Assembly (NCBI RefSeq): GCF_009931435.1
Contig: NZ_CP043414.1
Source of the DNA: Escherichia coli
GTDB lineage: Bacteria > Pseudomonadota > Gammaproteobacteria > Enterobacterales > Enterobacteriaceae
Reading direction: 5' to 3' (one strand)
DNA length: 64,000 nt
Positions 49,510 through 63,139 of this stretch are shown here, piece after piece (position 1 is the first letter of the stretch; each line of letters opens with the position of its first letter). A program made the translations under genes and the position numbers. The notes below the pieces were generated by a model. That model made no database searches, had not been told where the DNA came from, and saw nothing but the letters and a program-made list of their open reading frames with translations.

Positions 49510-50396
49510 GCTTTACCTCCAATAGCATTATCCAGAATACGCACAAAATGCATTGCCGAGAGCGTCGCACCATAAAACCAGACTGCGGGGACGCGCTGAA
49601 AGCGTCCGGCACGGACAAACGGCATGGCCTGCCACAGCGGGGTTGCCATTAGTGCGTCCATGTCTCTGCTGTTGTCGTGATCAAAACAGAGCACATCAAC
49701 GTCCTTATACGCTGCCAGACGATCGATACTGACGGCAGTACTGCCCCAGAAGTTGGTTTCTCCTTGCCAGGCATTTGGGATGCCGTACTCATCGAGAATT
49801 TCCTGGAACAGGCTGTTCGGGCCGAAGACCAGCATATGGCGCGGATCGATAAGTGTCGTCAGCAATAACGGGCGCGCACCACGCTTCACAAAGCGGGGTT
49901 TCATGCTGCGGATAAAGTCTTCATAGTGCGCTAAATGCGTTTCCGCTGCGCTTTGCAGGTTAAGTAAATCTGCCATTTCCGTCAGTGACTTACGCGCCAT
50001 CGCCAGCGGCTGTTTGCCGTCGCTGAAGTTAAATCCGCGCCCAGGCGCAATGCGTGCCAGCATTTCTGGTGAAGGGCCATACCCTGCCGACCAGACCATA
50101 AACGACGGTTTCATTTCGGTCAGCAGTTCAAGGTTAGGTTCTGTCCGCAAACCAACGTCAATCACTGAATCCGGCAATGGTGGCTCGCTGACCCACAGGC
50201 GATAGTTGATGGTATCCGCCACGCCGTAAGGTACGATGCCGAGCGCCAGCAGTAATTCCACCGGCAACCACTCCAGCGCCACAATACGATTGGGATCAAT
50301 AGCCGCCGCGCGGGCGGTATTCATCTGCCATAACAACGGAGAAAGCGCCATCGCTGTTAACAGTCGACGGCGCGTAATTAGAGGTAAGCTGCTCAT
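49506..50396 (-). CDS. fhuD: Ferric hydroxamate periplasmic binding protein FhuD
   Basis: 296 aa from ATG at 50396; overlaps fhuB start by 4 nt and fhuC stop by 1 nt (ATGA). Confidence 0.93.
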   Translation of the reverse strand: MSSLPLITRRRLLTAMALSPLLWQMNTARAAAIDPNRIVALEWLPVELLLALGIVPYGVADTINYRLWVSEPPLPDSVIDVGLRTEPNLELLTEMKPSFMVWSAGYGPSPEMLARIAPGRGFNFSDGKQPLAMARKSLTEMADLLNLQSAAETHLAHYEDFIRSMKPRFVKRGARPLLLTTLIDPRHMLVFGPNSLFQEILDEYGIPNAWQGETNFWGSTAVSIDRLAAYKDVDVLCFDHDNSRDMDALMATPLWQAMPFVRAGRFQRVPAVWFYGATLSAMHFVRILDNAIGGKA

Positions 50397-51193
50397 CAAT
50401 AAACAAAACTCACAGGTGCAGCACCCGCCGGATGCGGCAAAATACCCATCGGGATGCCATAAATCATTTCGAGGGTTTCGCCGCGCATAATTTCCGCAGG
50501 CGTTCCCTGAGCAATCATTTCACCGCCGCGCAGGGCGACCAGATAATCACAGTAACGCGCAGCCATATTGATATCGTGCAGCACGGCAATGACCGTCAGG
50601 CCACGCTCCTGACTTAAACGATGCACCAGCGCCAGCACATCAACCTGGTGGGCGATATCCAGCGCCGAGGTCGGTTCGTCGAGCAACAGACAACGGCTAT
50701 CCTGCGCCACCAGCATGGCGATCCACGCCCGTTGACGTTCGCCGCCAGAGAGGCTATCGACCAGCCGATGCGCCAGCGGTTTTAAGCCAACCAGCGAGAT
50801 AGCCTCTTCGACCTTTTCGCGATCTGCCGCGCCAAAGCGCCCCAGCGCGCCATGCCACGGGTAACGACCAATCGCCACCAGTTCACGCACCGTCATCCCT
50901 TCTGCCGGAGGAAGCTGCTGCGGCAAATAAGCCACTTTGCGAGCAAACGCTTTGCTGCTCCAGCTTTCCAGCGGCTGGGCATCAAGAAGAATCTCCCCTT
51001 CTGACGGTGGCTGATGGCGGCCCAACATTTTTAACAGCGTGGATTTACCAGAGCCGTTGTGACCAATCAGACCGGTCACTTTCCCGGCAGGAAAGGTTAA
51101 CGACAGCGGATGCAAAAGCGTGCGCCCGGGCACACGAAAGGAGATATTACGCAGTGCAAAAGTGGTATCGGAATGATTCGTGTATTCCTGCAT
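50396..51193 (-). CDS. fhuC: Ferric hydroxamate ABC transporter ATPase FhuC
   Basis: 265 aa from MQEYTNHSDTTFALRNISFRV..., Walker A GHNGSGKST; ORF track adds 14 codons upstream. Confidence 0.93.
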   Translation of the reverse strand: MQEYTNHSDTTFALRNISFRVPGRTLLHPLSLTFPAGKVTGLIGHNGSGKSTLLKMLGRHQPPSEGEILLDAQPLESWSSKAFARKVAYLPQQLPPAEGMTVRELVAIGRYPWHGALGRFGAADREKVEEAISLVGLKPLAHRLVDSLSGGERQRAWIAMLVAQDSRCLLLDEPTSALDIAHQVDVLALVHRLSQERGLTVIAVLHDINMAARYCDYLVALRGGEMIAQGTPAEIMRGETLEMIYGIPMGILPHPAGAAPVSFVY

Positions 51194-51243
51194 AACAGCC
51201 AACTTGTGAAACGGGCACGGAAATCCGTGCCCCAAAAGAGAAA

Positions 51244-53487
51244 TTAGAAACGGAAGGTTGCGGTTGCAACGACCTGACGTTCTGCGCCCCAGAAGCAGCC
51301 ATAGGTATTAAAGCAGCTGGCGACGTATTCACGATCGAACAGGTTGTTGACATGCAGCGCCACGTTGGAGCCAGCCATGCCGACCCGCGCCAGATCATAA
51401 CGCACTAACGCATCCACGACCGTATAACTTCCCACTTTAAAGGAGTTAGCCGGATCACCATAGCTGGAGCCAGTATAACGACCACCAGTACCCAGCGTCA
51501 GGCCAGAAAGCGGACCATCAAAGAAGGTGTAGTCAGCCCACAGCGAAGCCATATGTTTTGGCACCTGCGCAGGCGTATTGCCTTTATAGGTAGTGTCGGT
51601 GGTGTATTCTGCATCGGTGTAAGTATAAGAACCAACTACGTTAACACTCGCCGACAGCGCCGCTTTCGCTTCGATTTCTACGCCACGCGCGCGGATTTCA
51701 CCACCTTCAACCGAGAAGAAGGAACCCTCAGGGTCCGCCATCAGGTTGTTGGTTTTAGTGAGATTATACACAGCACCAGTAACCACAATTGGGCGATCTT
51801 CCGGTACATATTTCACGCCGACCTCATACTGCTTACCTTTAGACGGCGCAAAAATATTACCATCCTTCCCAACTTGTGAAGAAGGTTCAAACGATTCGCT
51901 ATAGCTGAAGTAAGGTGTTACACCATTATCAAACAGGTAGTTAACACCACCACGCCAGGTAAACTGTTTGTCATCACGTTTATCGGTCGTCCCTTCAACG
52001 CGGTTATGAGACTCTTGATCCGCCCAGTCATAACGACCGCCCAGGGTGACCAGCACTTTATCCCACTGCGCCTGATCCTGAACATAAACACCCGTTTGTT
52101 TCTGCTTATTCAGAATGCGGTAAGGGCCGGAGTTTGCCGGATCTTTCGCATTGAAGTCGAAATCGGTATTCACCGGATTGTACAGATCGAGCAGCGGTAC
52201 GGAGTCGTCGTAACCAAACCAGGCGTTGATGTCATTACGCATACGCATAAAGTCGACACCGGTCAGCAGAGTGTGGTCGATATCGCCAGTGGCAAACTTG
52301 CTCTGCAACTGGGTATCAACGGAGAAGTTTTGCAGCTTCTCATCATCAACGACGTATTTACGTGCCAGGTAGTGACCTTTATCGGCTGGCGCTAAAGCGG
52401 CACACTGTTTGCTGTAAGCATTCGCCGGATCGGAGCAGACGCCGTAACCATAAACGCTGTTTTGCGAGGTTTTGTTTTCAGCAAAGCGCAGGTTCTGACG
52501 CACAGTAAAGGTGTCGTTAAATTCGTGATCGAAGCTGTAGCCCACCATCTTCTCATTACGAGAATAGGTGTTGTTCTTCGCCCCTTCGTTAAAATCTGTC
52601 GGCAGACGCTTACCGTTCGGCAGCGGCTCAACGGTTCCCTCTTTCGGCAGCCAGCCGTAATAACCGGTTTCCGGCTCGTTCTGGAAGTAAGAAAGGAAGG
52701 TGAAATTGGTTTTATCATCCGGACGCCAGGTAAACGCTGGCGCAATGGCATAACGCTGCTCTTCCGCGCCCTTTTGCTGGGCATTGGCAGAGCGCGCCAG
52801 TCCGGTCAGACGATAAGAGTAAACGCCGTCATCATCCAGCGCATCGCTAAAGTCGAAACCGGTCTGGAACAGGCTGTCTGTGCCCGCTTTAAATTGGATT
52901 TCTTTCAGCGGTTCGGTGGTTGGGCGCTTGCTGACCATATTTAACAGGCCGCCAGGGCTACTTTTACCGTAAAGAACAGAAACAGGGCCACGCATAATTT
53001 CAGCGCGTTCCAGCATATACGGGTCAATAACTGCATCGTTATAGAAGTTGCCTTGCAACTTCAGACCATTCAGATAGTTATTCTGGCTTTGGCCTTCTGC
53101 TGCAAAACCACGAATAATCAAATGATCATAAGTGTTTGATGCACCACGCGTACCGACCGAAACGCCTGGCGTATAGCTAAGCGCTTCTTTTACTGACTTA
53201 GGCTGATGCAGCGCCATTTCTTCGGCAGTGACAACAGAAATTGACTGCGGCACTTTTTGAATCGGTGTATCGGTTTTGGTGCCGGTAGCGGACTGTCGCG
53301 CCGCAATAGTTGCAGCTGGCCCCCATGCGCTTTCTTGCGGCGCTGGTGCAGCGGTAACGGTGATAGTGTCTTCTTTCGGTTCAACCGCTGCCTGTGCATA
53401 AACAGACATGCCGCTAACCGCTGTGGCTACTACAACTGCGATTTTACGCAGTGAGTGTTTTGGCTGAGCAGTTTTGGAACGCGCCAT
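51244..53487 (-). CDS. fhuA: TonB-dependent ferrichrome outer-membrane receptor FhuA
   Basis: 747-aa ORF, signal peptide, TonB box (DTITV), C-terminal ...ATATFRF; recognised FhuA. Confidence 0.96.
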   Translation of the reverse strand: MARSKTAQPKHSLRKIAVVVATAVSGMSVYAQAAVEPKEDTITVTAAPAPQESAWGPAATIAARQSATGTKTDTPIQKVPQSISVVTAEEMALHQPKSVKEALSYTPGVSVGTRGASNTYDHLIIRGFAAEGQSQNNYLNGLKLQGNFYNDAVIDPYMLERAEIMRGPVSVLYGKSSPGGLLNMVSKRPTTEPLKEIQFKAGTDSLFQTGFDFSDALDDDGVYSYRLTGLARSANAQQKGAEEQRYAIAPAFTWRPDDKTNFTFLSYFQNEPETGYYGWLPKEGTVEPLPNGKRLPTDFNEGAKNNTYSRNEKMVGYSFDHEFNDTFTVRQNLRFAENKTSQNSVYGYGVCSDPANAYSKQCAALAPADKGHYLARKYVVDDEKLQNFSVDTQLQSKFATGDIDHTLLTGVDFMRMRNDINAWFGYDDSVPLLDLYNPVNTDFDFNAKDPANSGPYRILNKQKQTGVYVQDQAQWDKVLVTLGGRYDWADQESHNRVEGTTDKRDDKQFTWRGGVNYLFDNGVTPYFSYSESFEPSSQVGKDGNIFAPSKGKQYEVGVKYVPEDRPIVVTGAVYNLTKTNNLMADPEGSFFSVEGGEIRARGVEIEAKAALSASVNVVGSYTYTDAEYTTDTTYKGNTPAQVPKHMASLWADYTFFDGPLSGLTLGTGGRYTGSSYGDPANSFKVGSYTVVDALVRYDLARVGMAGSNVALHVNNLFDREYVASCFNTYGCFWGAERQVVATATFRF

Positions 53488-53509
53488 TGGTATATCTCTG
53501 ATGTAAAGT

Positions 53510-53545
53510 GAATGATAACGTAAACGAGAATGATTATTATAAAGA
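53510..53545 (-). promoter_or_regulatory. Fur box / iron-regulated promoter region of fhuA
   Basis: GAATGATAACGTAAACGAGAATGATTATTATAAAG: overlapping GATAAT/ATTATC hexamer arrays resembling Fur consensus, 20-60 nt upstream of fhuA start. Confidence 0.6.
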
Positions 53546-53665
53546 TGAGATAATATTCGAAACGCTGGCGGGTTCGCAAGCGGTACGCAATCTGAGCATT
53601 CCTGAGGGGTTAATAAACAATCAGATGAAAAGAAAGGGTTAATACTTTGGGTAGGATGTTATTTT

Positions 53666-53690
53666 ACCGGATGGCGACTCGCCATCCGGT
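53666..53690 (-). terminator. Strong inverted repeat downstream of mrcB (possible terminator; no U-tract)
   Basis: ACCGGATGGCGactCGCCATCCGGT, 11-bp perfect stem, 16 nt after mrcB stop. Confidence 0.4.
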
Positions 53691-53705
53691 ATGTCAGCTT
53701 AGACG

Positions 53706-56240
53706 TTAATTACTACCAAACATATCCTTGATCCAACCTGCTACGCCGTCACTGTCTTTCTGCTCTTGCTGAGCAGGTTGCTGTTGCGGCTGTTGCTGCG
53801 GCTGAGAAGACTGATCAAACGGATTGCCTGACGGTTGCTGCTGAATCTCACTCTGCTGGCACAGCGATTGCGGATCGCTGGTCCAGACCGGCAAGACACG
53901 CATGCCACCGCTGCAAACAAAGTTGCCGTCGTAGTCCACGCCCATATCTGCAATATCTTCTGGTGGAACAAGATTCAGCGGTGTTGGCGTCTGGTTAGCC
54001 AGATAACGCTGATAAATCGACATTGCCCCGCTGGCTCCATACAGTTTGGTCGGCTGGTTGTTATCACGGCCTACCCAGGTGATGGTCACCGTGCTGCCGT
54101 CAATGCCCGCAAACCAGGTATCTACGTTGTTGTTGGTAGTACCCGTTTTCCCTGCCAGATGCAGATTTGGATATTTCGCCCCAAGCTGACGTCCCGTACC
54201 GCGTTGTACTACCTGCTGCATGGTCCATAGTGTCAGATACGCCGCCTGAGCCGGAACAGCGCGTTCCGCCTGCGGGAAGCTCTGATACAGTACCTTGCCA
54301 TCTTCCGCGATTACCGAACGCAGCGCAGAAAGCGGTGCTCGGTTACCACCACTAGCGATGGTCTGGAACGCCTGCGCCACTTCAATTGGCGTTAAGTTCA
54401 ACGCCCCCAGCAGCATTGCCGGAACCGGATGCAGCTGATCTTTCGGTACGCCCAGTTTAATCCAGGTATCCGTAACCGCAGGCAGACCCAGCGCCATCCC
54501 CAGATTCACCGTCGGCACGTTCATCGAACGTGTCAACGCATCCACCAGCATCACTCTGCCACTTTCGCTATAACGACGGTCATCGTTCTGCGGTGACCAG
54601 ACCTGGCCATTCGGCTGACGCAGCGCGATTGGCGCATCGGCAATCCACGTGTTCAGGCGATAGATTTTCGGCTGGCTTAAGGCCGTCAGATAAGTCGCTG
54701 GTTTTGCAAGAGAACCAATCGAACGACGCGCCTGCATCGCACGGTTGTAACCCGCAAACTGCGGCTCAGAACCACCGACCATCGCACGAACTTCACCACT
54801 AAAGCGGTCGACGACCACAATCGCGGTTTCAAGATCGCTCAACTTACGCTGTTTCTTCAGTGCCGGAATGCCTTCCACGGCGGCTTTTTCTGCCGCGTCC
54901 TGGGCCACCGAGTCAAAGGTTGTGAAGATCTTCACGCCGGAGAGATCTTTTACCTTATCGCCCAGTTTTGCCTGCAACTCCTGACGCACCAGCTGCATAA
55001 AGGCTGGCTGTGGAGAGATTACCCCACCGCGCGGCTGAACGCCCAGCGGACGTGCACTCAACATGTCATAGAGCTCTTGATCAATAATCTGCTGTTGTTG
55101 CAGCAGACGCAGTACCAGATTACGTCGCTCCAGCGCCAGTTTCGGGTTACGCCACGGGTTATAGATCGACGCCCCTTTCACCATACCAACCAACAGCGCC
55201 TGCTGGTCGAGACTCAGCTCTTCTACCGGGCGACCAAAGTAGTACAGGCTCGCCAGCGGGAAACCGCGGATTTCGTTGTCGCCGCTCTGACCGAGATACA
55301 CCTCGTTCATATACAGCTCAAGAATGCGGTCTTTGCTGTAACGCGCATCCATAATCAGCGCCATGTAGGCTTCGTTAGCTTTACGCCAGTAAGAACGTTC
55401 GCTGGAGAGGAACAGGTTTTTCACCAACTGTTGCGTCAGCGTACTCGCTCCCTGCACCGTGCGTCCGGCGGTCAGGTTTGCCAGCACCGCTCGTCCGATG
55501 GAGTAGAGACTGATCCCATCATGCTCGTAGAAATGACGGTCTTCAGTCGCCAACAACGTATCCACCAGCAAATCCGGGAACCCACTGCGCGGCACAAACA
55601 GACGCTGCTCGCCGTTTGGTGAGGAGATCATGGTGATCAGGCGCGGATCAAGACGGAAGAAACCGAACTGACGGTTGTTCTCCATATTGACGATGGTCGC
55701 CAGATGATCGCCATCAAAGGTCAGACGTGCACGCACCTGCCCTTCTTTACTGTCCGGGAAATCAAACGGACGGCGGATCATTTCAATGCTGTTGGCCTGC
55801 ACGGTAAATTCGCCAGGACGGGTCATTTTCGACACCTGACGATACTGGGTCGCCTCCAGCAGTTTCACCATCTCGTTTTTGCTGATGGTCATGTCTGGCT
55901 CAAGGTTGACCATTCGGCCATAAACAGCCGCAGGCAATTGCCAGACTTTGCCATCAATACGGCTACGAATTTTTTGATCGAGATAAACGCCGTAAATGGC
56001 GATCAGCACGGCAAAAACGATAGCAAGTTTTAGCAGTAGCCATAGCCAGCCGCGTTTGCCACGAGGCTTACGCCCTTTGCCTTTGCCCTTACCTTTGCGC
56101 GGCATCGGTTCTTCATCCTCATAGTCATCATAATCGTCGTAATCATCGTCATCTTCATAACGACGACGGCTTACCTTTTGTTTGACCGGACGCGTCGGTT
56201 TCCCTTTGCGTCCAATTGGCTCGCGGTCATTCCCGGCCAT
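53706..56240 (-). CDS. mrcB: Penicillin-binding protein 1B (bifunctional transglycosylase/transpeptidase)
   Basis: 844 aa from [17 protein letters not shown]...; acidic/basic cytoplasmic tail, single TM, GT51 and transpeptidase domains. Confidence 0.95.
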
Positions 56241-56333
56241 GCTTTTTCTCCGCAATATTCAGGCGCAAAAGCCCGATTTTCTGTTCTTCTGTAACAAGAC
56301 AGAAGAAGATATCTCTCAAATTTACTTTGGTCT

Positions 56334-58763
56334 TCATGAATACTTTTTCGTCCGTCGCGTCGGTGCGGTATTTGCCGGATCATCCGGCCAGACGTGTTTG
56401 GGATAACGCCCTTTCATCTCTTTTTGCACCTCGCGATACGCACCTTTCCAGAAGGCGCTCAAATCTCGTGTGATTTGCAGCGGCCTTTGGGCAGGAGAAA
56501 GCAACTCCAGCACCAGCGGCACACGCCCCTGGGCGATCGTCGGATTGGTGGCCTCGCCAAACATCTCCTGCATTCTCACCGCCAGCGCGGGCGGGTTATC
56601 TTCATGGTAACGAATGGCGATCCGGCTCCCCGTCGGCACAGTGTAATGCGCAGGCAATTCACTATCCAGACGTTGCTGCATCCCCCAATCAAGTAATCCG
56701 CGTAGCGCCTGATAAATATCGAGTGATTTCAGGCCGCGTAGCGAATGTACGCCTGCCATATGCGGCAGTAGCCACGTTTCCAGCGTCGCCAACAAACTTG
56801 CATCATCAACCGCTGGCCAGTCATATTCCGGCAACCACTTTGCGGCGCATAACAAACGCAAGCGTAGCTGTTCCGCTTCCGCCGTCCAGTTGAGCACGCT
56901 TAAACCTTTATCACGAATGCCGTTAAGCATTGCCTGATGCAACTCGTCTTCCGAGGGTTTCGCCAGCGGCTGCACTTTCACCGTCAACTGACCGATTTGC
57001 AGCCGACGCCACGCTTTCAGCGTACCTTGCGCATCATCCCACTCCACAGTGTCAGACTGCTGTACCAACTGCGGACAGCGTTGTACTAATTCATCGATAT
57101 CGACCGGTAGCGCCAGTAAAATCCGCGCATCCGGCGAGGCGCTGCCCTGCAATAATAACGGTGCGATCAACCATTCGTGGCGGCTTAGCGCATCGTCGGC
57201 ATCGAGCATTGCCCCCATGCCGTTTGCCAGTTGATAGCGTCCATCTTGCCCACGGCGACGAGCAATGCGATCGGCATACGCCCCGGCAAGTAGCGGCGCG
57301 ATAAGAGAACTGTCTGCCTCACCGCCGCGTACGTTTAAACGTTTTAACAGTTGCTGGCTACGTTGCTGCCAGGCAGGTTGATTGCGCGAAAACGCCACAT
57401 CCAGATCGATATTGCCCATCCGTGGTGGCTCTTCGAGAATAGCGGCAATTTTTGCAGCGGTAGCAGCTTCGTCGTCGCTCCTTGCGCTCACCAGCATTGC
57501 CGCTAAACGCGGATCGTTACCCAGCGTCGCCATTTTCTGCCCTTTCGTGCTTAGCCGTTCACCGTCCATCGCCCCCAGCATCCGTAACAGGCGTTTCGCG
57601 GCCTGTAAATTCACGGCTGGCGGTTGATCCAGCCAGCTCATCTGCGTCGGATCGCTGCATCCCCATTGCAGTAATTCCATCAGCAAACCGGAGAGATCGC
57701 TTTGTAAGATTTCCGGTTCACTTTGCGCGGAGGCGCGTTCTGCTTGTTCTTTGGCGATTAAATGTAAACAGATCCCCGGCTCCAGACGTCCGGCACGCCC
57801 GGCGCGTTGCGTCATTGATGCCTGGCTAATGCGTTGGGTAATCAGCCGCGTTAGCCCCGTGCGCGGATCAAAGCGCGCCACACGTTCCTGAGCACAATCC
57901 ACCACCAGACGAATACCTTCGATGGTTAAACTGGTTTCAGCAATATTGGTTGCCAGCACCACTTTGCGCATCCCTTCTGGTGCCGGAAGGATCGCTTTTC
58001 GCTGATCGTTCAGCGACAACGCGCCATACAGCGGGCAGAGCAACACATCACTACCGATGCGCGAAGCTAGTTGTTCCTGAACGCGCTGAATTTCTCCGAC
58101 ACCAGGTAAAAATAACAGTAATGAGCCGCTTTCCTGATGCAGCAATTCGGCGGTGGCAACCGCCACGGCTTCATCAAAACGCTGATGAGCGAGCAGCGGT
58201 AAATATCGGCGTTCAACCGGAAATGAGCGCCCTTCTGAGATGACGACGGGCGCTTCTGGCAGCATCTGCTGCAAGCGGTCATTGTCCAGCGTAGCCGACA
58301 TAATCAGTAGTTTAAGGTCATCACGCAGACCTTGTTGCACATCGAGTAACAGCGCCAACGCCAGATCCGCCTGCAAGCTGCGCTCATGAAACTCATCGAG
58401 GATCACCAATCCAACGCCGCTCAGTTCAGGGTCACGCTGGATCATGCGCGTCAACACGCCTTCGGTAACTACTTCCAGGCGAGTATTTGGCCCGACACAG
58501 TTTTGCGCGCGCATCCGGTAGCCTACCGTATCACCTGTTTTTTCGTTAAGCAGTTCCGCCAGTCGTTGCGCAACGTTACGCGCCGCCAGGCGACGCGGCT
58601 CCAGCAGGATAATTTTTCCGTTAATGCCGGGATGCGCCAGCAGTTGCAGCGGCAGCCAGGTTGATTTCCCGGCCCCGGTCGGCGCACTTAATAACACCTG
58701 CGGTGCACCATCGAGGGCAGCAAGTAACTCAGGTAAGACGGCGGCAACGGGCAACGACGACAC
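56334..58763 (-). CDS. hrpB: ATP-dependent RNA helicase HrpB (DEAH family)
   Basis: 809 codons from GTG at 58763; Walker A GAGKST and DEFH motif; ORF track 824-aa form starts 15 codons upstream. Confidence 0.9.
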   Translation of the reverse strand: MSSLPVAAVLPELLAALDGAPQVLLSAPTGAGKSTWLPLQLLAHPGINGKIILLEPRRLAARNVAQRLAELLNEKTGDTVGYRMRAQNCVGPNTRLEVVTEGVLTRMIQRDPELSGVGLVILDEFHERSLQADLALALLLDVQQGLRDDLKLLIMSATLDNDRLQQMLPEAPVVISEGRSFPVERRYLPLLAHQRFDEAVAVATAELLHQESGSLLLFLPGVGEIQRVQEQLASRIGSDVLLCPLYGALSLNDQRKAILPAPEGMRKVVLATNIAETSLTIEGIRLVVDCAQERVARFDPRTGLTRLITQRISQASMTQRAGRAGRLEPGICLHLIAKEQAERASAQSEPEILQSDLSGLLMELLQWGCSDPTQMSWLDQPPAVNLQAAKRLLRMLGAMDGERLSTKGQKMATLGNDPRLAAMLVSARSDDEAATAAKIAAILEEPPRMGNIDLDVAFSRNQPAWQQRSQQLLKRLNVRGGEADSSLIAPLLAGAYADRIARRRGQDGRYQLANGMGAMLDADDALSRHEWLIAPLLLQGSASPDARILLALPVDIDELVQRCPQLVQQSDTVEWDDAQGTLKAWRRLQIGQLTVKVQPLAKPSEDELHQAMLNGIRDKGLSVLNWTAEAEQLRLRLLCAAKWLPEYDWPAVDDASLLATLETWLLPHMAGVHSLRGLKSLDIYQALRGLLDWGMQQRLDSELPAHYTVPTGSRIAIRYHEDNPPALAVRMQEMFGEATNPTIAQGRVPLVLELLSPAQRPLQITRDLSAFWKGAYREVQKEMKGRYPKHVWPDDPANTAPTRRTKKYS

Positions 58764-58836
58764 AAAACGCTCCAGAGGGTTAACATTCTTCGCGCCACAT
58801 TGTAGCATCGCGGTAATGCATAACCGAGTACCTCAC

Positions 58837-60086
<1,250 letters not shown>

Positions 60087-60263
60087 TAGAGTAAGTAACT
60101 GGTTAATTTACATTCTGGTCGCGTGCGCAAATACGCTTTTCCTCACACAGTTGTCAAGTGTTACGTTTAGATAATTGCTATCCGGAAAAGCTTCTGCTAT
60201 TTATAGCGGCCTCATTTTTCCCCCGAACATGGGGATCGATAGTGCGTGTTAAGGAGAAGCAAC

Positions 60264-60719
60264 ATGCAAGAAGGGCAAAACCGTAAAACATCGTCCCTGA
60301 GTATTCTCGCCATCGCTGGGGTGGAGCCATATCAGGAGAAGCCGGGCGAAGAGTATATGAACGAAGCCCAGCTGGCGCACTTCCGTCGTATTCTGGAAGC
60401 ATGGCGTAATCAACTCAGGGATGAAGTCGATCGCACCGTTACACATATGCAGGATGAAGCAGCCAACTTCCCGGATCCGGTAGACCGTGCAGCCCAGGAA
60501 GAAGAGTTCAGCCTCGAACTGCGTAACCGCGATCGCGAGCGTAAGCTGATCAAAAAGATCGAGAAAACGCTGAAAAAAGTGGAAGACGAAGATTTCGGCT
60601 ACTGCGAGTCCTGCGGTGTTGAAATTGGTATTCGTCGTCTGGAAGCGCGCCCGACAGCCGATCTGTGCATTGACTGCAAAACGCTGGCTGAAATTCGCGA
60701 AAAACAAATGGCTGGCTAA
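60264..60719 (+). CDS. dksA: RNA polymerase-binding transcription factor DksA
   Basis: 151 aa from [15 protein letters not shown]..., C4 zinc finger [25 protein letters not shown]; ORF track adds 6 codons upstream. Confidence 0.96.
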
Positions 60720-60747
60720 TTACAGCCGTTCCATCACGTTTACCACA

Positions 60748-60776
60748 GGCGGGAAATGCTCCCGCCTTATTTTTTG
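60748..60776 (+). terminator. Intrinsic terminator downstream of dksA, overlapping annotated gluQ start
   Basis: GGCGGGAaatgcTCCCGCC followed by TTATTTTTTG; gluQ first ATG (60756) sits in the loop. Confidence 0.65.
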
Positions 60777-61682
60777 TTCAACGAGATGACAGACACACAC
60801 TATATTGGCCGCTTTGCCCCCTCTCCTTCCGGCGAGCTTCATTTTGGCTCTCTGATTGCCGCGCTTGGAAGCTTTCTACAGGCTCGCGCCCGGCAAGGTC
60901 GCTGGCTTGTTCGCATTGAAGATATCGATCCGCCTCGTGAAGTTCCCGGTGCCGCAGAGACCATCCTGCGCCAGCTGGAACATTACGGTTTACACTGGGA
61001 CGGCGATGTTCTCTGGCAATCGCAACGTCACAACGCCTATCGCGAAGCACTCGCATGGTTACATGAGCAAGGGTTAAGTTATTACTGCACCTGCACGCGC
61101 GCACGTATTCAAAGCATTGGCGGTATTTACGACGGTCATTGCCGGGAGTTGCATCATGGGCCAGAAAACGCTGCTGTACGTATTCGCCAGCAGCATCCGG
61201 TCACCCAGTTTACTGACCAGCTGCGCGGCATTATTCATGCCGACCAAAAACTGGCGCGGGAAGATTTTATTATTCATCGTCGTGATGGTCTATTTGCCTA
61301 TAACCTGGCGGTGGTCGTTGACGATCACTACCAGGGCGTGACAGAAATTGTTCGTGGCGCGGATTTGATCGAACCCACGGTGCGCCAAATCTCGCTGTAC
61401 CAGCTTTTTGGCTGGCAGGTGCCAGATTACATTCATTTGCCACTGGCACTTAATCCACAAGGCGCTAAACTTTCCAAGCAGAATCATGCGCCTGCGTTGC
61501 CAAAAGGCGATCCTCGGCCGGTGTTAATCGCGGCACTTCAATTTCTGGGCCAGCAGGCAGAAACACACTGGCAGGATTTCAGCGTCGCGCAAATTCTCCA
61601 GTCAGCCGTCAAAAACTGGCGGCTCACCGCAGTGCCTGAGTCGGCAATTGTAAATTCAACATTCTCAAATGCGTCATGCTGA
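60756..61682 (+). CDS. gluQ: Glutamyl-Q tRNA(Asp) synthetase GluQ (YadB)
   Basis: 308-aa ORF with class I aaRS-like motifs; first ATG lies in loop of dksA terminator hairpin, alternative ATG at 60786 would give 298 aa. Confidence 0.88.
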
Positions 61683-61741
61683 GCTATGATTAGCCGCTAT
61701 TTTTTTGTCCTGAATGATGTTTGACACTACCGAGGTGTACT

Positions 61742-63139
61742 ATTTTTACCCGAGTCGCTAATTTTTGCCGCAAGGTGCTAAGCCGCGAGGAAAGCGAGGC
61801 TGAACAGGCAGTCGCCCGTCCACAGGTGACGGTGATCCCGCGTGAGCAGCATGCTATTTCCCGCAAAGATATCAGTGAAAATGCCCTGAAGGTAATGTAC
61901 AGGCTCAATAAAGCGGGATACGAAGCCTGGCTGGTTGGCGGCGGCGTGCGCGACCTGTTACTTGGCAAAAAGCCGAAAGATTTTGACGTGACTACTAACG
62001 CCACGCCAGAGCAAGTGCGCAAACTGTTCCGTAACTGCCGCCTGGTGGGTCGCCGTTTCCGTCTGGCTCATGTGATGTTTGGCCCGGAGATTATCGAAGT
62101 TGCGACCTTCCGGGGACATCACGAAGGTAACGTCAGCGACCGTACGACCTCCCAACGCGGGCAAAACGGCATGTTGCTGCGCGACAACATTTTCGGTTCC
62201 ATCGAAGAAGACGCCCAGCGCCGCGATTTCACTATTAATAGTCTGTATTACAGCGTGGCAGATTTTACCGTCCGTGATTACGTTGGCGGCATGAAGGATC
62301 TGAAGGACGGCGTTATCCGTCTGATTGGTAACCCGGAAACGCGCTACCGTGAAGATCCGGTACGTATGCTGCGCGCGGTTCGTTTTGCCGCCAAATTGGG
62401 CATGCGCATCAGCCCGGAAACCGCAGAACCGATCCCACGCCTGGCTACCCTGCTGAACGATATTCCTCCTGCACGCCTGTTTGAAGAATCGCTTAAACTG
62501 CTACAAGCGGGCTACGGTTACGAAACCTATAAACTGTTGTGTGAATACCATCTGTTCCAGCCGCTGTTCCCGACCATTACCCGCTACTTTACGGAAAATG
62601 GTGACAGTCCAATGGAGCGGATCATTGAGCAGGTGCTGAAGAATACTGACACGCGTATTCATAACGATATGCGCGTCAACCCGGCGTTCCTGTTTGCCGC
62701 CATGTTCTGGTATCCCCTGCTGGAAACAGCACAGAAAATCGCGCAAGAGAGCGGCCTGACTTATCACGACGCTTTCGCGCTGGCAATGAACGATGTGTTA
62801 GACGAAGCCTGCCGTTCACTGGCGATCCCGAAACGGCTAACCACTTTAACGCGTGATATCTGGCAGTTACAGTTGCGCATGTCCCGCCGTCAGGGTAAAC
62901 GCGCATGGAAATTACTCGAACATCCGAAGTTCCGTGCCGCTTATGACCTGCTGGCACTGCGTGCTGAAGTAGAACGCAACGCCGAGCTACAACGTCTGGC
63001 GAAATGGTGGGGTGAGTTCCAGGTTTCCGCGCCGCCGGACCAAAAAGGGATGCTTAACGAACTGGATGAAGAACCGTCACCGCGTCGTCGTACTCGTCGC
63101 CCGCGCAGACGTGCGCCGCGCCGTGAGGGCACCGCATGA
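61742..63139 (+). CDS. pcnB: Poly(A) polymerase I
   Basis: 465 codons from ATT at 61742 ([12 protein letters not shown]...) with GAGG 6 nt upstream; first in-frame ATG is ~55 codons downstream; nucleotidyltransferase GGxVRD motif ([13 protein letters not shown]). Confidence 0.9.

Follow-up and report, generated by a model that had tools for sequence, protein, structure and literature searches.

The acidic and basic blocks of the PBP1b cytoplasmic tail and the internal start of the gamma isoform in an Escherichia coli mrcB gene

The mrcB locus and its charged N-terminus

The window, that is the whole stretch of 64,000 nucleotides of Escherichia coli DNA that was analysed, carries mrcB (ponB) on its minus strand at 53706..56240, with the ATG at 56238..56240 and a product of 844 aa, PBP1b alpha. 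This assignment, already made in an earlier note from the sequence alone, is borne out by NCBIfam, Pfam, RefSeq and gene order. Two full-length models recognise the product, NF007061 (PRK09506) of NCBIfam with 1733.8 bits against a cutoff of 1120 and TIGR02071 (PBP_1b) with 1248 bits against a cutoff of 717.75, and Pfam finds the domains PBP1_TM (PF14812, residues 1-79), UB2H (PF14814, 113-197), Transgly (PF00912, 209-379) and Transpeptidase (PF00905, 473-714) in this order. The RefSeq annotation under the E. coli matches is mrcB in 5,424 of 5,424 cases. Over a 12-kb match the gene order hrpB, mrcB, fhuA, fhuC is common to the window and the E. coli genomes; hrpB lies directly upstream of mrcB, whose orthologous position is between hrpB and fhuA.

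Residues 1-60 are identical to those of the E. coli K-12 alpha/gamma pair as given in PMC13423804, and Met46, the domain order and the neighbourhood are the same as well. At the DNA level the window is not mainstream E. coli: the closest complete E. coli genome is 98.0% identical over 12 kb, and in the 360 nt that enclose the tract the difference from every such genome is 0.8% or more. The codon of Y28, for instance, is TAT in the window where E. coli has TAC. BL21 matches the window at 98.9% by megablast; the value of 88% from an ungapped position-by-position comparison (81-95% across Escherichia loci) reflects misalignment.

Translation of 56240..56001 (minus strand, as for all features below) gives the layout of the N-terminus. 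Residues 1-14 (56199..56240) form the N-terminal peptide specific to alpha, a predicted FtsA ligand, and match the K-12 sequence. The first basic segment (residues 11-27) ends in the tribasic R25-R27 (56160..56168), and Y28 (56157..56159) stands ahead of a 16-residue acidic block of D, E and Y, E29-E44 (56109..56156), as delimited by translation, repeat search and charge count. P45 (56106..56108) and Met46 (56103..56105) lead over to the basic K/R/G/P block P47-G64 (56049..56102), which adjoins the transmembrane helix W65-Y86 (55983..56048). The earlier note had described an acidic-then-basic tract in the cytoplasmic tail just ahead of the membrane helix, and rightly so, given that both peptide strings it quoted are found in the minus-strand translation and that the PBP1_TM domain takes up residues 1-79. 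Its span of 56040-56160 points to the right tract, but either end is misplaced by about 9 nt, the strand is not given, and the 'PM' that separates the two strings is passed over.

Residues 1-79 match the whole 85-position profile of PF14812 (88.4 bits, cutoff 27.8); the name of this family covers the transmembrane domain only, and isoforms and charge blocks go unmentioned. For all matching PBP1b chains in the PDB the match to the query begins only at residue 53-58, so that the helix is included, and the acidic block and most of the basic block are absent from these solved structures.

The net charge is +8 for residues 1-27, -13 for residues 28-45 and +10 for residues 46-64. Within the acidic block 13 of 16 residues are acidic, which is the maximum over 24,318 16-residue segments from all stop-to-stop ORFs of at least 150 aa in the window; the next-most acidic segment outside the tract holds at most 8, and the binomial probability of the stretch is 2.5e-10 at a D+E frequency of 0.115. 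The basic block has K or R in 10 of 16 residues. As the earlier note had stated, repeats are also visible in the DNA. Tandem Repeats Finder reports a period of 12 with 3.8 copies (73% matches, score 50, 56113-56158), a period of 9 with 3.2 copies (80% matches, 56125-56153) and a period of 6 (CCTTTG) with 4.2 copies (78% matches, 56074-56098), and the tract supplies four of the eight repeat rows with a score of at least 36 in the window, the top score included. These repeats are short and imperfect, with units of 3, 6 or 9 nt, matches of 65-80% and only two perfect copies, as in GATGAT (D32-D33, 56142..56147) and (GGCAAA)x2 (G52-K55, 56076..56087).

Met46 and the putative internal ribosome-binding site

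The mrcB gene of the window has an in-frame ATG at codon 46, between the acidic and the basic block, and is a candidate dual-start gene by its sequence. That gamma translation begins at Met46 has long been known (PMC13423804, citing Kato 1984 and Broome-Smith 1985). Retapamulin ribosome profiling gave a peak at this internal start in both K and B strains of E. coli (10.1101/520783) and revealed a matching internal start in Salmonella (PMC11005335), and both PBP1b products are made in E. coli K-12, BL21 and Salmonella (PMC13423804; 10.1101/520783; PMC11005335). Since the gamma start lies between the two blocks, the acidic block belongs to the alpha isoform only, as the last part of its 45-residue extension, while the K/R/G block is common to alpha and gamma.

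The alpha-only extension is needed for septal recruitment and for septum fortification against osmotic rupture (PMC13423804). It brings PBP1b to the division site, probably via FtsA (PMC13423804, Nat Microbiol 2026). Residues 1-14 are predicted to bind FtsA, with R6, P8, I9, G10 and R11 implicated; for this binding by the N-terminal peptide, predictions are joined by partial biochemical and cytological support (PMC13423804). An AlphaFold-Multimer proteome screen with residues 1-60 reported FtsA as the partner, contacting the N-terminal peptide only (PMC13423804). Residues 1-14 of the window include R6, P8, I9, G10 and R11 and may represent the same predicted FtsA-binding peptide. Cytoplasmic-tail deletion mutants were the subject of Chalut et al. 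2001, as cited in PMC13423804. The view in the earlier note that the function of the tract is unclear is thus outdated, as its blocks flank the gamma start and the alpha extension is required at the septum. The basic-then-acidic tail itself has been in print since 2024 (PMC11005335), and the tract is a real, ordinary and already described feature. The word 'acidic' is absent from PMC13423804, and a literature search on a specific role of the acidic block found nothing relevant.

Ten nt upstream of the internal ATG, the codons of E41 and D42 contain the Shine-Dalgarno-like motif GAGGA (56116..56120), which has the same 10-nt spacing in 65 of 76 unique tails. GAGGA occurs in 35 of 38 distinct haplotypes compared to 27.7 expected (P=0.002). 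A run of Glu and Asp codons readily yields GAGGA (27.7 of 38 by chance), so that the motif by its presence alone is weak proof of an internal site. Synonymous codon choice at single positions is more telling: against a background GAG fraction of 0.62, GAG is used for 66 of the 70 Glu residues at codon -5, whereas codons -3 and -2 are mostly GAA; the corresponding p values are 4e-4 and 2e-4 for 38 distinct haplotypes, uncorrected for shared ancestry. The upstream part of the acidic block has no such bias (GAG fraction 0.58 vs 0.62 in the background). In the predicted lowest-energy RNA fold the stretch from GAGGA to the ATG is unpaired, and predicted RNA structure around the internal start was not significant (z = -0.35). 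From the nucleotide sequence, the last acidic codons appear to carry a conserved, Shine-Dalgarno-like putative internal ribosome-binding site.

Other E. coli genes with well-characterised internal starts offer a comparison. Those of infB and clpB were detected alongside that of mrcB by retapamulin ribosome profiling, and here, too, one gene gives two N-terminal forms by means of an internal Shine-Dalgarno motif and an ATG or GTG start (10.1101/520783). Unlike in infB and clpB, the isoform-specific part of mrcB is a disordered targeting tail instead of a folded domain, and the putative internal ribosome-binding site is built of acidic codons. The GpsB-binding cytoplasmic tails of Gram-positive class A PBPs offer an analogy, as they too are disordered and direct their enzyme to the division site (PMC13423804); their sequences and partner are unrelated to those of PBP1b, and neither an acidic block nor a second start is reported there.

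Conservation and length alleles

We compared 81 Enterobacteriaceae sequences, that of the window and those of 80 other species. The acidic block consists to 98% of D, E and Y (51% D, 30% E, 17% Y), ranges in length from 10 to 19 aa, with 15-17 aa in 69 of the 81, and contains two or three Tyr in 79 of 81 sequences. Its net charge ranges from -9 to -16 and is -12 to -14 in 66 of 81, and the basic block, counted from P45, has 18-24 aa and a net charge of +8 to +10. The exact sequence of the acidic block varies much more, with 50 distinct versions among the 81 compared to only six for residues 1-14. In alignment A1, E7, P8, I9, G10 and R11 are invariant, and R6 is, like R25, nearly so.

At the Met46 position, 70 of the 81 sequences have ATG and 7 have GTG (77 together). 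All seven Val boundary codons are GTG at a background GTG fraction of 0.57, which is weak evidence for an internal start, as the naive p of 0.019 becomes ~0.1 if only four lineages are independent. A Met at the boundary between acidic and basic residues also occurs in the matches from Yersinia pestis, Serratia rubidaea, Erwinia persicina, Pantoea sp., a Sodalis-like organism and Providencia sp. MrcB of Salmonella Typhimurium has the same order of basic segment, acidic block, Met, basic block and membrane helix, together with an internal start (PMC11005335). Its extension has 42 aa compared to 45 here, in agreement with M43 in the Salmonella locus examined; the acidic block of this locus, DDDYDDDYEDEE, is three residues shorter than that of the window, and it has three KG units where the window has four. 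More distant PBP1b homologues keep a K/R-rich tail, but have no comparable acidic block, and 66 of 103 distant representatives show no acidic residue in any 12-residue segment of the tail.

The earlier note had also suggested that the length of the tract could vary between strains. We searched 5,424 complete E. coli genomes, in which alleles were assigned within one mismatch. Length variants do exist, but 5,089 genomes (93.8%) have one common length. The tract is not invariant across strains: the delta-D allele, with one Asp codon fewer, is found in 179 genomes (~3.3%), the delta-KG allele, with one Lys-Gly unit fewer, in 132 (~2.4%), and both deletions together in 11; 13 genomes match none of the four alleles. 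Single-unit, in-frame deletions thus occur in about 6% of complete E. coli genomes, and each is the loss of one copy from a perfect two-copy repeat, GATGAT in delta-D and (GGCAAA)x2 in delta-KG. All sequenced variants are in frame (-3, -6 or -9 nt). The four delta-D loci (L001, L002, L006, L007) read EDDDY and share the protein accession WP_000918206.1, and both delta-KG loci (L003, L008) read KGKGKG and carry a linked L77M change, a pattern that points to descent and not to recurrent switching. A frameshifted acidic tract was seen in a few public assemblies (P0012, P0034, P0058), which may be assembly errors. The tract is neither hypervariable nor phase-variable.

Possible roles of the acidic block

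The tract is the known charged tail of PBP1b and spans the boundary of two translational isoforms, and we consider it somewhat more likely than not that the acidic block acts as a spacer. Initiation at ATG1 would give alpha-PBP1b and initiation at ATG46 gamma-PBP1b. The basic block would serve as positive-inside topology and anchor signal in either product, probably resting on the anionic inner leaflet. The acidic block is proposed to be a disordered, strongly negative spacer that is repelled by the membrane and parts the two basic segments (+8 and +10), so that the FtsA-binding peptide would stay clear of the membrane and reach out into the cytoplasm. Such a role would place selection on composition and approximate length instead of exact sequence, and it is the comparative data that suggest it. 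At the RNA level, the last acidic codons GAG GAT GAA GAA could in addition function as ribosome-binding site for gamma, consisting of GAGGA and an A-rich, unpaired spacer. The short GAT/GAC/TAT and GGCAAA repeats would be by-products of coding for low-complexity peptides, with occasional in-frame slippage by one unit.

Two observations run counter to a spacer role. The strictly conserved two or three Tyr exceed the needs of a pure charge spacer. Moreover, one representative (P0114, 69% identical) lacks an acidic block and has an EPIG-type N-terminal motif followed directly by a basic tail, and the block may not be required for this motif to work.

Instead of being a passive spacer, the acidic block might fold back on one of the basic segments (11-27 or 47-64) and constitute a regulatory module, an electrostatic switch that masks or unmasks the FtsA-binding peptide, or changes the lipid contact of the basic segment or the self-association of PBP1b. 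The strong segregation of the charge blocks (+8, -13, +10) and the narrow range of the acidic net charge would fit this idea. Between species, however, the charge of the acidic block does not follow that of the basic block (r=0.15), and the AlphaFold-Multimer screen of residues 1-60 reports contact through the N-terminal peptide only (PMC13423804), and we regard such a switch as unlikely. It also seems rather improbable that the D/E/Y block is a tuned module, in which charge, length and Tyr set the reach of the FtsA-binding peptide and the 3' codons set the alpha:gamma ratio. If this were true, the delta-D and delta-KG alleles would alter septal fortification or the tolerance to beta-lactams or osmotic stress.

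The recurrence of Tyr might further suggest that the (D/E)3-Y periodicity forms a short linear motif for a cytoplasmic partner or a tyrosine-phosphorylation site. With a share of 17% in the block, Tyr is kept at two or three residues in 79 of 81 sequences in spite of 50 distinct blocks, and Y or F recurs in the tails of Yersinia, Serratia and Providencia. Number and spacing of Tyr shift between genera, however, a literature search found nothing relevant on phosphotyrosine in mrcB, and the proteome screen of residues 1-60 led to FtsA, which is bound by the N-terminal peptide (PMC13423804), all of which makes a specific motif quite doubtful.

We regard it as very unlikely that the purine-rich GA(N) codons are mainly a translation-initiation region for gamma, with the acidic peptide as tolerated by-product. 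The conserved GAGGA, the synonymous bias at defined positions and the predicted unpaired region would be expected from it, but ~15-20 nt suffice for a ribosome-binding site where the stretch here has 48-135 nt, the codons further upstream in the block lack the GAG bias and the block is nevertheless 98% D/E/Y, and composition is conserved at the protein level while the DNA varies. A contingency locus, with frequent slippage-driven switching of tract length or of alpha between strains, is rejected as largely refuted, since in spite of the length alleles in E. coli and the few frameshifted tracts, which would abolish alpha and spare gamma, the repeats have two copies with units in multiples of 3 nt, 5,089 of 5,424 genomes agree in length, and the shared accession and linked L77M indicate descent.

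To the description of the PBP1b tail, our analysis adds that the composition of the acidic block is conserved and its length nearly fixed across Enterobacteriaceae, that its last codons contain a conserved putative internal ribosome-binding site, and that ~6% of E. coli genomes carry in-frame deletions. The tract marks the boundary of the PBP1b isoforms, and its value lies mainly in annotation. The delta-D and delta-KG alleles are ready natural variants for addressing the contribution of the acidic block to FtsA-dependent recruitment of PBP1b.

Identity and composition of the charged tail

The charged tract lies within the 5' end of mrcB, encoded on the minus strand at 53706..56240 (2,535 nt, ATG at 56238..56240), so that its assignment to the PBP1b tail in the earlier note was correct. 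The window protein reaches 1733.8 bits with NCBIfam PRK09506 (cutoff 1120) and 1248 bits with TIGR02071, and comprises the Pfam domains PBP1_TM (residues 1-79), UB2H, Transgly and Transpeptidase. Its gene is flanked by hrpB upstream and fhuA downstream, and its residues 1-60 match the K-12 sequence printed in PMC13423804 to 100%. Translation of the minus strand places an acidic block, E29-E44, at 56109..56156, Met46 at 56103..56105, a basic block, P47-G64, at 56049..56102, and the membrane helix from 56048 downward. The previously proposed span of 56040-56160 was well placed, but its ends are off by about 9 nt on each side and the residues PM between its two strings had been left out. Net charges are +8 for residues 1-27, -13 for residues 28-45 and +10 for residues 46-64. 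In all PDB chains, alignment to the query begins only at residue 53-58, leaving the acidic block and most of the basic block uncovered.

With 13 of 16 residues acidic (binomial P = 2.5e-10), the acidic block has the highest acidic content of 24,318 windows from all long ORFs of the window, in which 16-residue windows outside the tract contain at most 8 acidic residues. Tandem Repeats Finder reported arrays with periods of 12, 9 and 6 at 56113-56158 (best score 50, matches 65-80%) and a period-6 CCTTTG array at 56074-56098; the tract accounts for four of the eight rows scoring at least 36 in the whole window, including the top score. The charged tract is a real, non-random feature of PBP1b, already known and described in the literature.

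The window itself is not from mainstream E. coli: across 12 kb (50000..62000), no complete E. coli genome among 5,424 exceeded 98.0% identity, and identity was only 90-95% in 1,768 of them. In the best tblastn segments, the first 250 PBP1b residues match those of representatives of three other Escherichia species, E. albertii, Escherichia sp. E1V33 and E. whittamii, at 100% identity.

Two isoforms and the internal start

The acidic and basic blocks flank Met46, which is the internal in-frame start of gamma PBP1b, while ATG1 gives rise to the alpha form. Because Met46 separates the blocks, the acidic block is confined to alpha and the basic block is common to both isoforms. PMC13423804 credits the two starts to Kato 1984 and Broome-Smith 1985. 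Start codons can be mapped by retapamulin ribosome profiling, in which ribosomes are trapped as they initiate; this method detected the internal start of mrcB in K and B strains of E. coli (10.1101/520783) and also in Salmonella (PMC11005335), whose long form is extended by 42 aa. The alpha extension is required for septal recruitment; FtsA binding is predicted for residues 1-14, with R6, P8, I9, G10 and R11 implicated, and R6E abolished recruitment and caused the same septal lysis as the full deletion (PMC13423804). In an earlier study, alpha and its first six residues guarded against lysis under simultaneous inhibition of PBP1a and PBP3. The evidence so far thus establishes the two starts, the dependence of septal recruitment on the alpha extension and the weight of the N-terminal motif. 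The earlier view that the function is unclear is outdated for the tail as a whole, but still applies to the acidic block itself.

At the nucleotide level, 70 of 81 Enterobacteriaceae sequences have ATG as the boundary codon and 7 have GTG. A GAGGA motif, formed by E41 (GAG) and D42 (GAT), precedes the internal start by 10 nt in 65 of 76 unique tails. Counted back from this start, GAG is used for 66 of 70 Glu codons at codon -5, and GAA for 54 of 61 and 52 of 66 at codons -3 and -2, compared to a background GAG fraction of 0.62 in the same genes. Among 38 distinct haplotypes, with shared ancestry uncorrected, these position-specific biases gave p = 4e-4 and 2e-4, and GAGGA was present in 35 versus 27.7 expected (P = 0.002). 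The predicted RNA fold leaves the stretch from GAGGA to the start unpaired and is unremarkable in other respects (z = -0.35). We infer a second function for the last acidic codons, as the ribosome-binding site of gamma.

Conservation and putative role of the acidic block

Scanning one genome per species with an alignment of diverse tails yielded 80 Enterobacteriaceae loci (n = 81 with the window), to which protein matches added, by source names, Yersinia pestis, Serratia rubidaea, Erwinia persicina, Pantoea sp., a Sodalis-like symbiont and Providencia sp. The common layout consists of an M[AS]G[ND]DREPIGRKG motif, RRR, a D/E/Y block, a boundary Met (or Val), a K/R/G block and the membrane helix. 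In the 81 Enterobacteriaceae sequences the acidic block is composed of 51% D, 30% E and 17% Y and spans 10-19 aa (15-17 aa in 69), with a net charge of -9 to -16; it occurs in 50 distinct sequences versus 6 for residues 1-14. The block is longer in other families of the order: Yersinia, Serratia and Providencia tails have roughly 20-35 residues from the RRR motif to the boundary Met. Such retention of composition and approximate length with a free register is typical of a constrained disordered segment. Since tails of distant PBP1b representatives (at most 69% identity) are mostly purely basic, 66 of 103 being devoid of acidic residues in any 12-residue window, the acidic block appears specific to Enterobacterales and the basic anchor general.

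Acidic and basic block lengths correlate negatively in the 81 tails (r = -0.41, shared ancestry uncorrected), and 68 of them have a total tail length of 62-64 aa, which hints, phylogeny being uncorrected, at a constraint on overall length. Four loci (L080, L081, L088 and L089, from Pseudescherichia vulneris, Superficieibacter sp., an Enterobacteriaceae MAG and Kluyvera intermedia) have neither Met nor Val at the boundary; these species may make only the long isoform or use another start.

We propose that the basic block would serve as a positive-inside anchor adjoining the membrane, and that the acidic block, repelled by the membrane, would extend as a spacer between the two basic segments and so present the FtsA-binding peptide. 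A pure spacer would not explain the conserved tyrosines, two to three of which occur in 79 of the 81 blocks, and a Tyr-based motif is possible. Likewise left unexplained by a pure spacer is the 69%-identical PBP1b representative P0114, which starts MSHYGHEPIGQKNKK and in which an EPIG-type motif is directly followed by a basic tail, 35 residues in all, with no acidic block. The block could also possibly act as an electrostatic switch, or its role could possibly lie in the RNA only.

Length variation among E. coli

A 150-nt query of the common allele matched 5,424 of 5,426 complete E. coli genomes, where identity of at least 99% means no length change and no more than one mismatch; other alleles were found by sequencing low-scoring matches and were then each used as query. 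Within one mismatch, 5,089 genomes carry the common length, 179 a deletion of one GAT from GATGAT (delta-D, EDDDDY to EDDDY), 132 a deletion of one GGCAAA from a perfect doublet (delta-KG, (KG)4 to (KG)3), and 11 both deletions plus D42E, while none of these four alleles fits 13 genomes. The slippage-driven length variation suspected from the repeats thus finds weak support, being limited to about 6% of genomes (n = 5,424), each one unit shorter and in frame; a contingency locus is essentially refuted. As the four delta-D loci sequenced share one protein accession and the two delta-KG loci both carry a linked L77M, the variants point to a small number of historical events, not frequent switching. 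Slippage at two-copy repeats would account for such rare in-frame deletions. Two divergent 'E. coli' species representatives (L014, L015) hold further in-frame variants, including the loss of one DDY unit.

The mrcB 5' region went unmatched in two of the 5,426 genomes, and three of the 5,424 mrcB matches lie on plasmid-labelled records. Among E. coli, length differs far more in the Gln-rich C-terminal tail of PBP1b (53709..53800, minus strand) than in the N-terminal tract: 1,199 of 5,424 genomes fell below 95% identity to a 191-nt C-terminal query, and in BL21 this end of mrcB is shorter by 9 nt, so that the protein has 841 aa despite an N-terminus of common length. Residues 811-843 (53709..53807, minus strand) show a sub-threshold match to Pfam FtsA_C (PF11983; 19.8 bits, cutoff 27.4, E = 0.0016), which is probably driven by low complexity. 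A stretch of the C-terminal tail resembles the FtsA membrane-targeting helix. The weak match is curious, as it is the PBP1b N-terminus that is proposed to bind FtsA.

Odd tail versions occur in some public assemblies (protein matches P0053, P0012, P0034 and P0058). A 1,028-nt contig contains a tandem duplication of roughly residues 4-38 of the tail, and several of these entries have the acidic tract out of frame. These versions may be assembly errors; a real frameshift in the acidic tract would abolish alpha and spare gamma.
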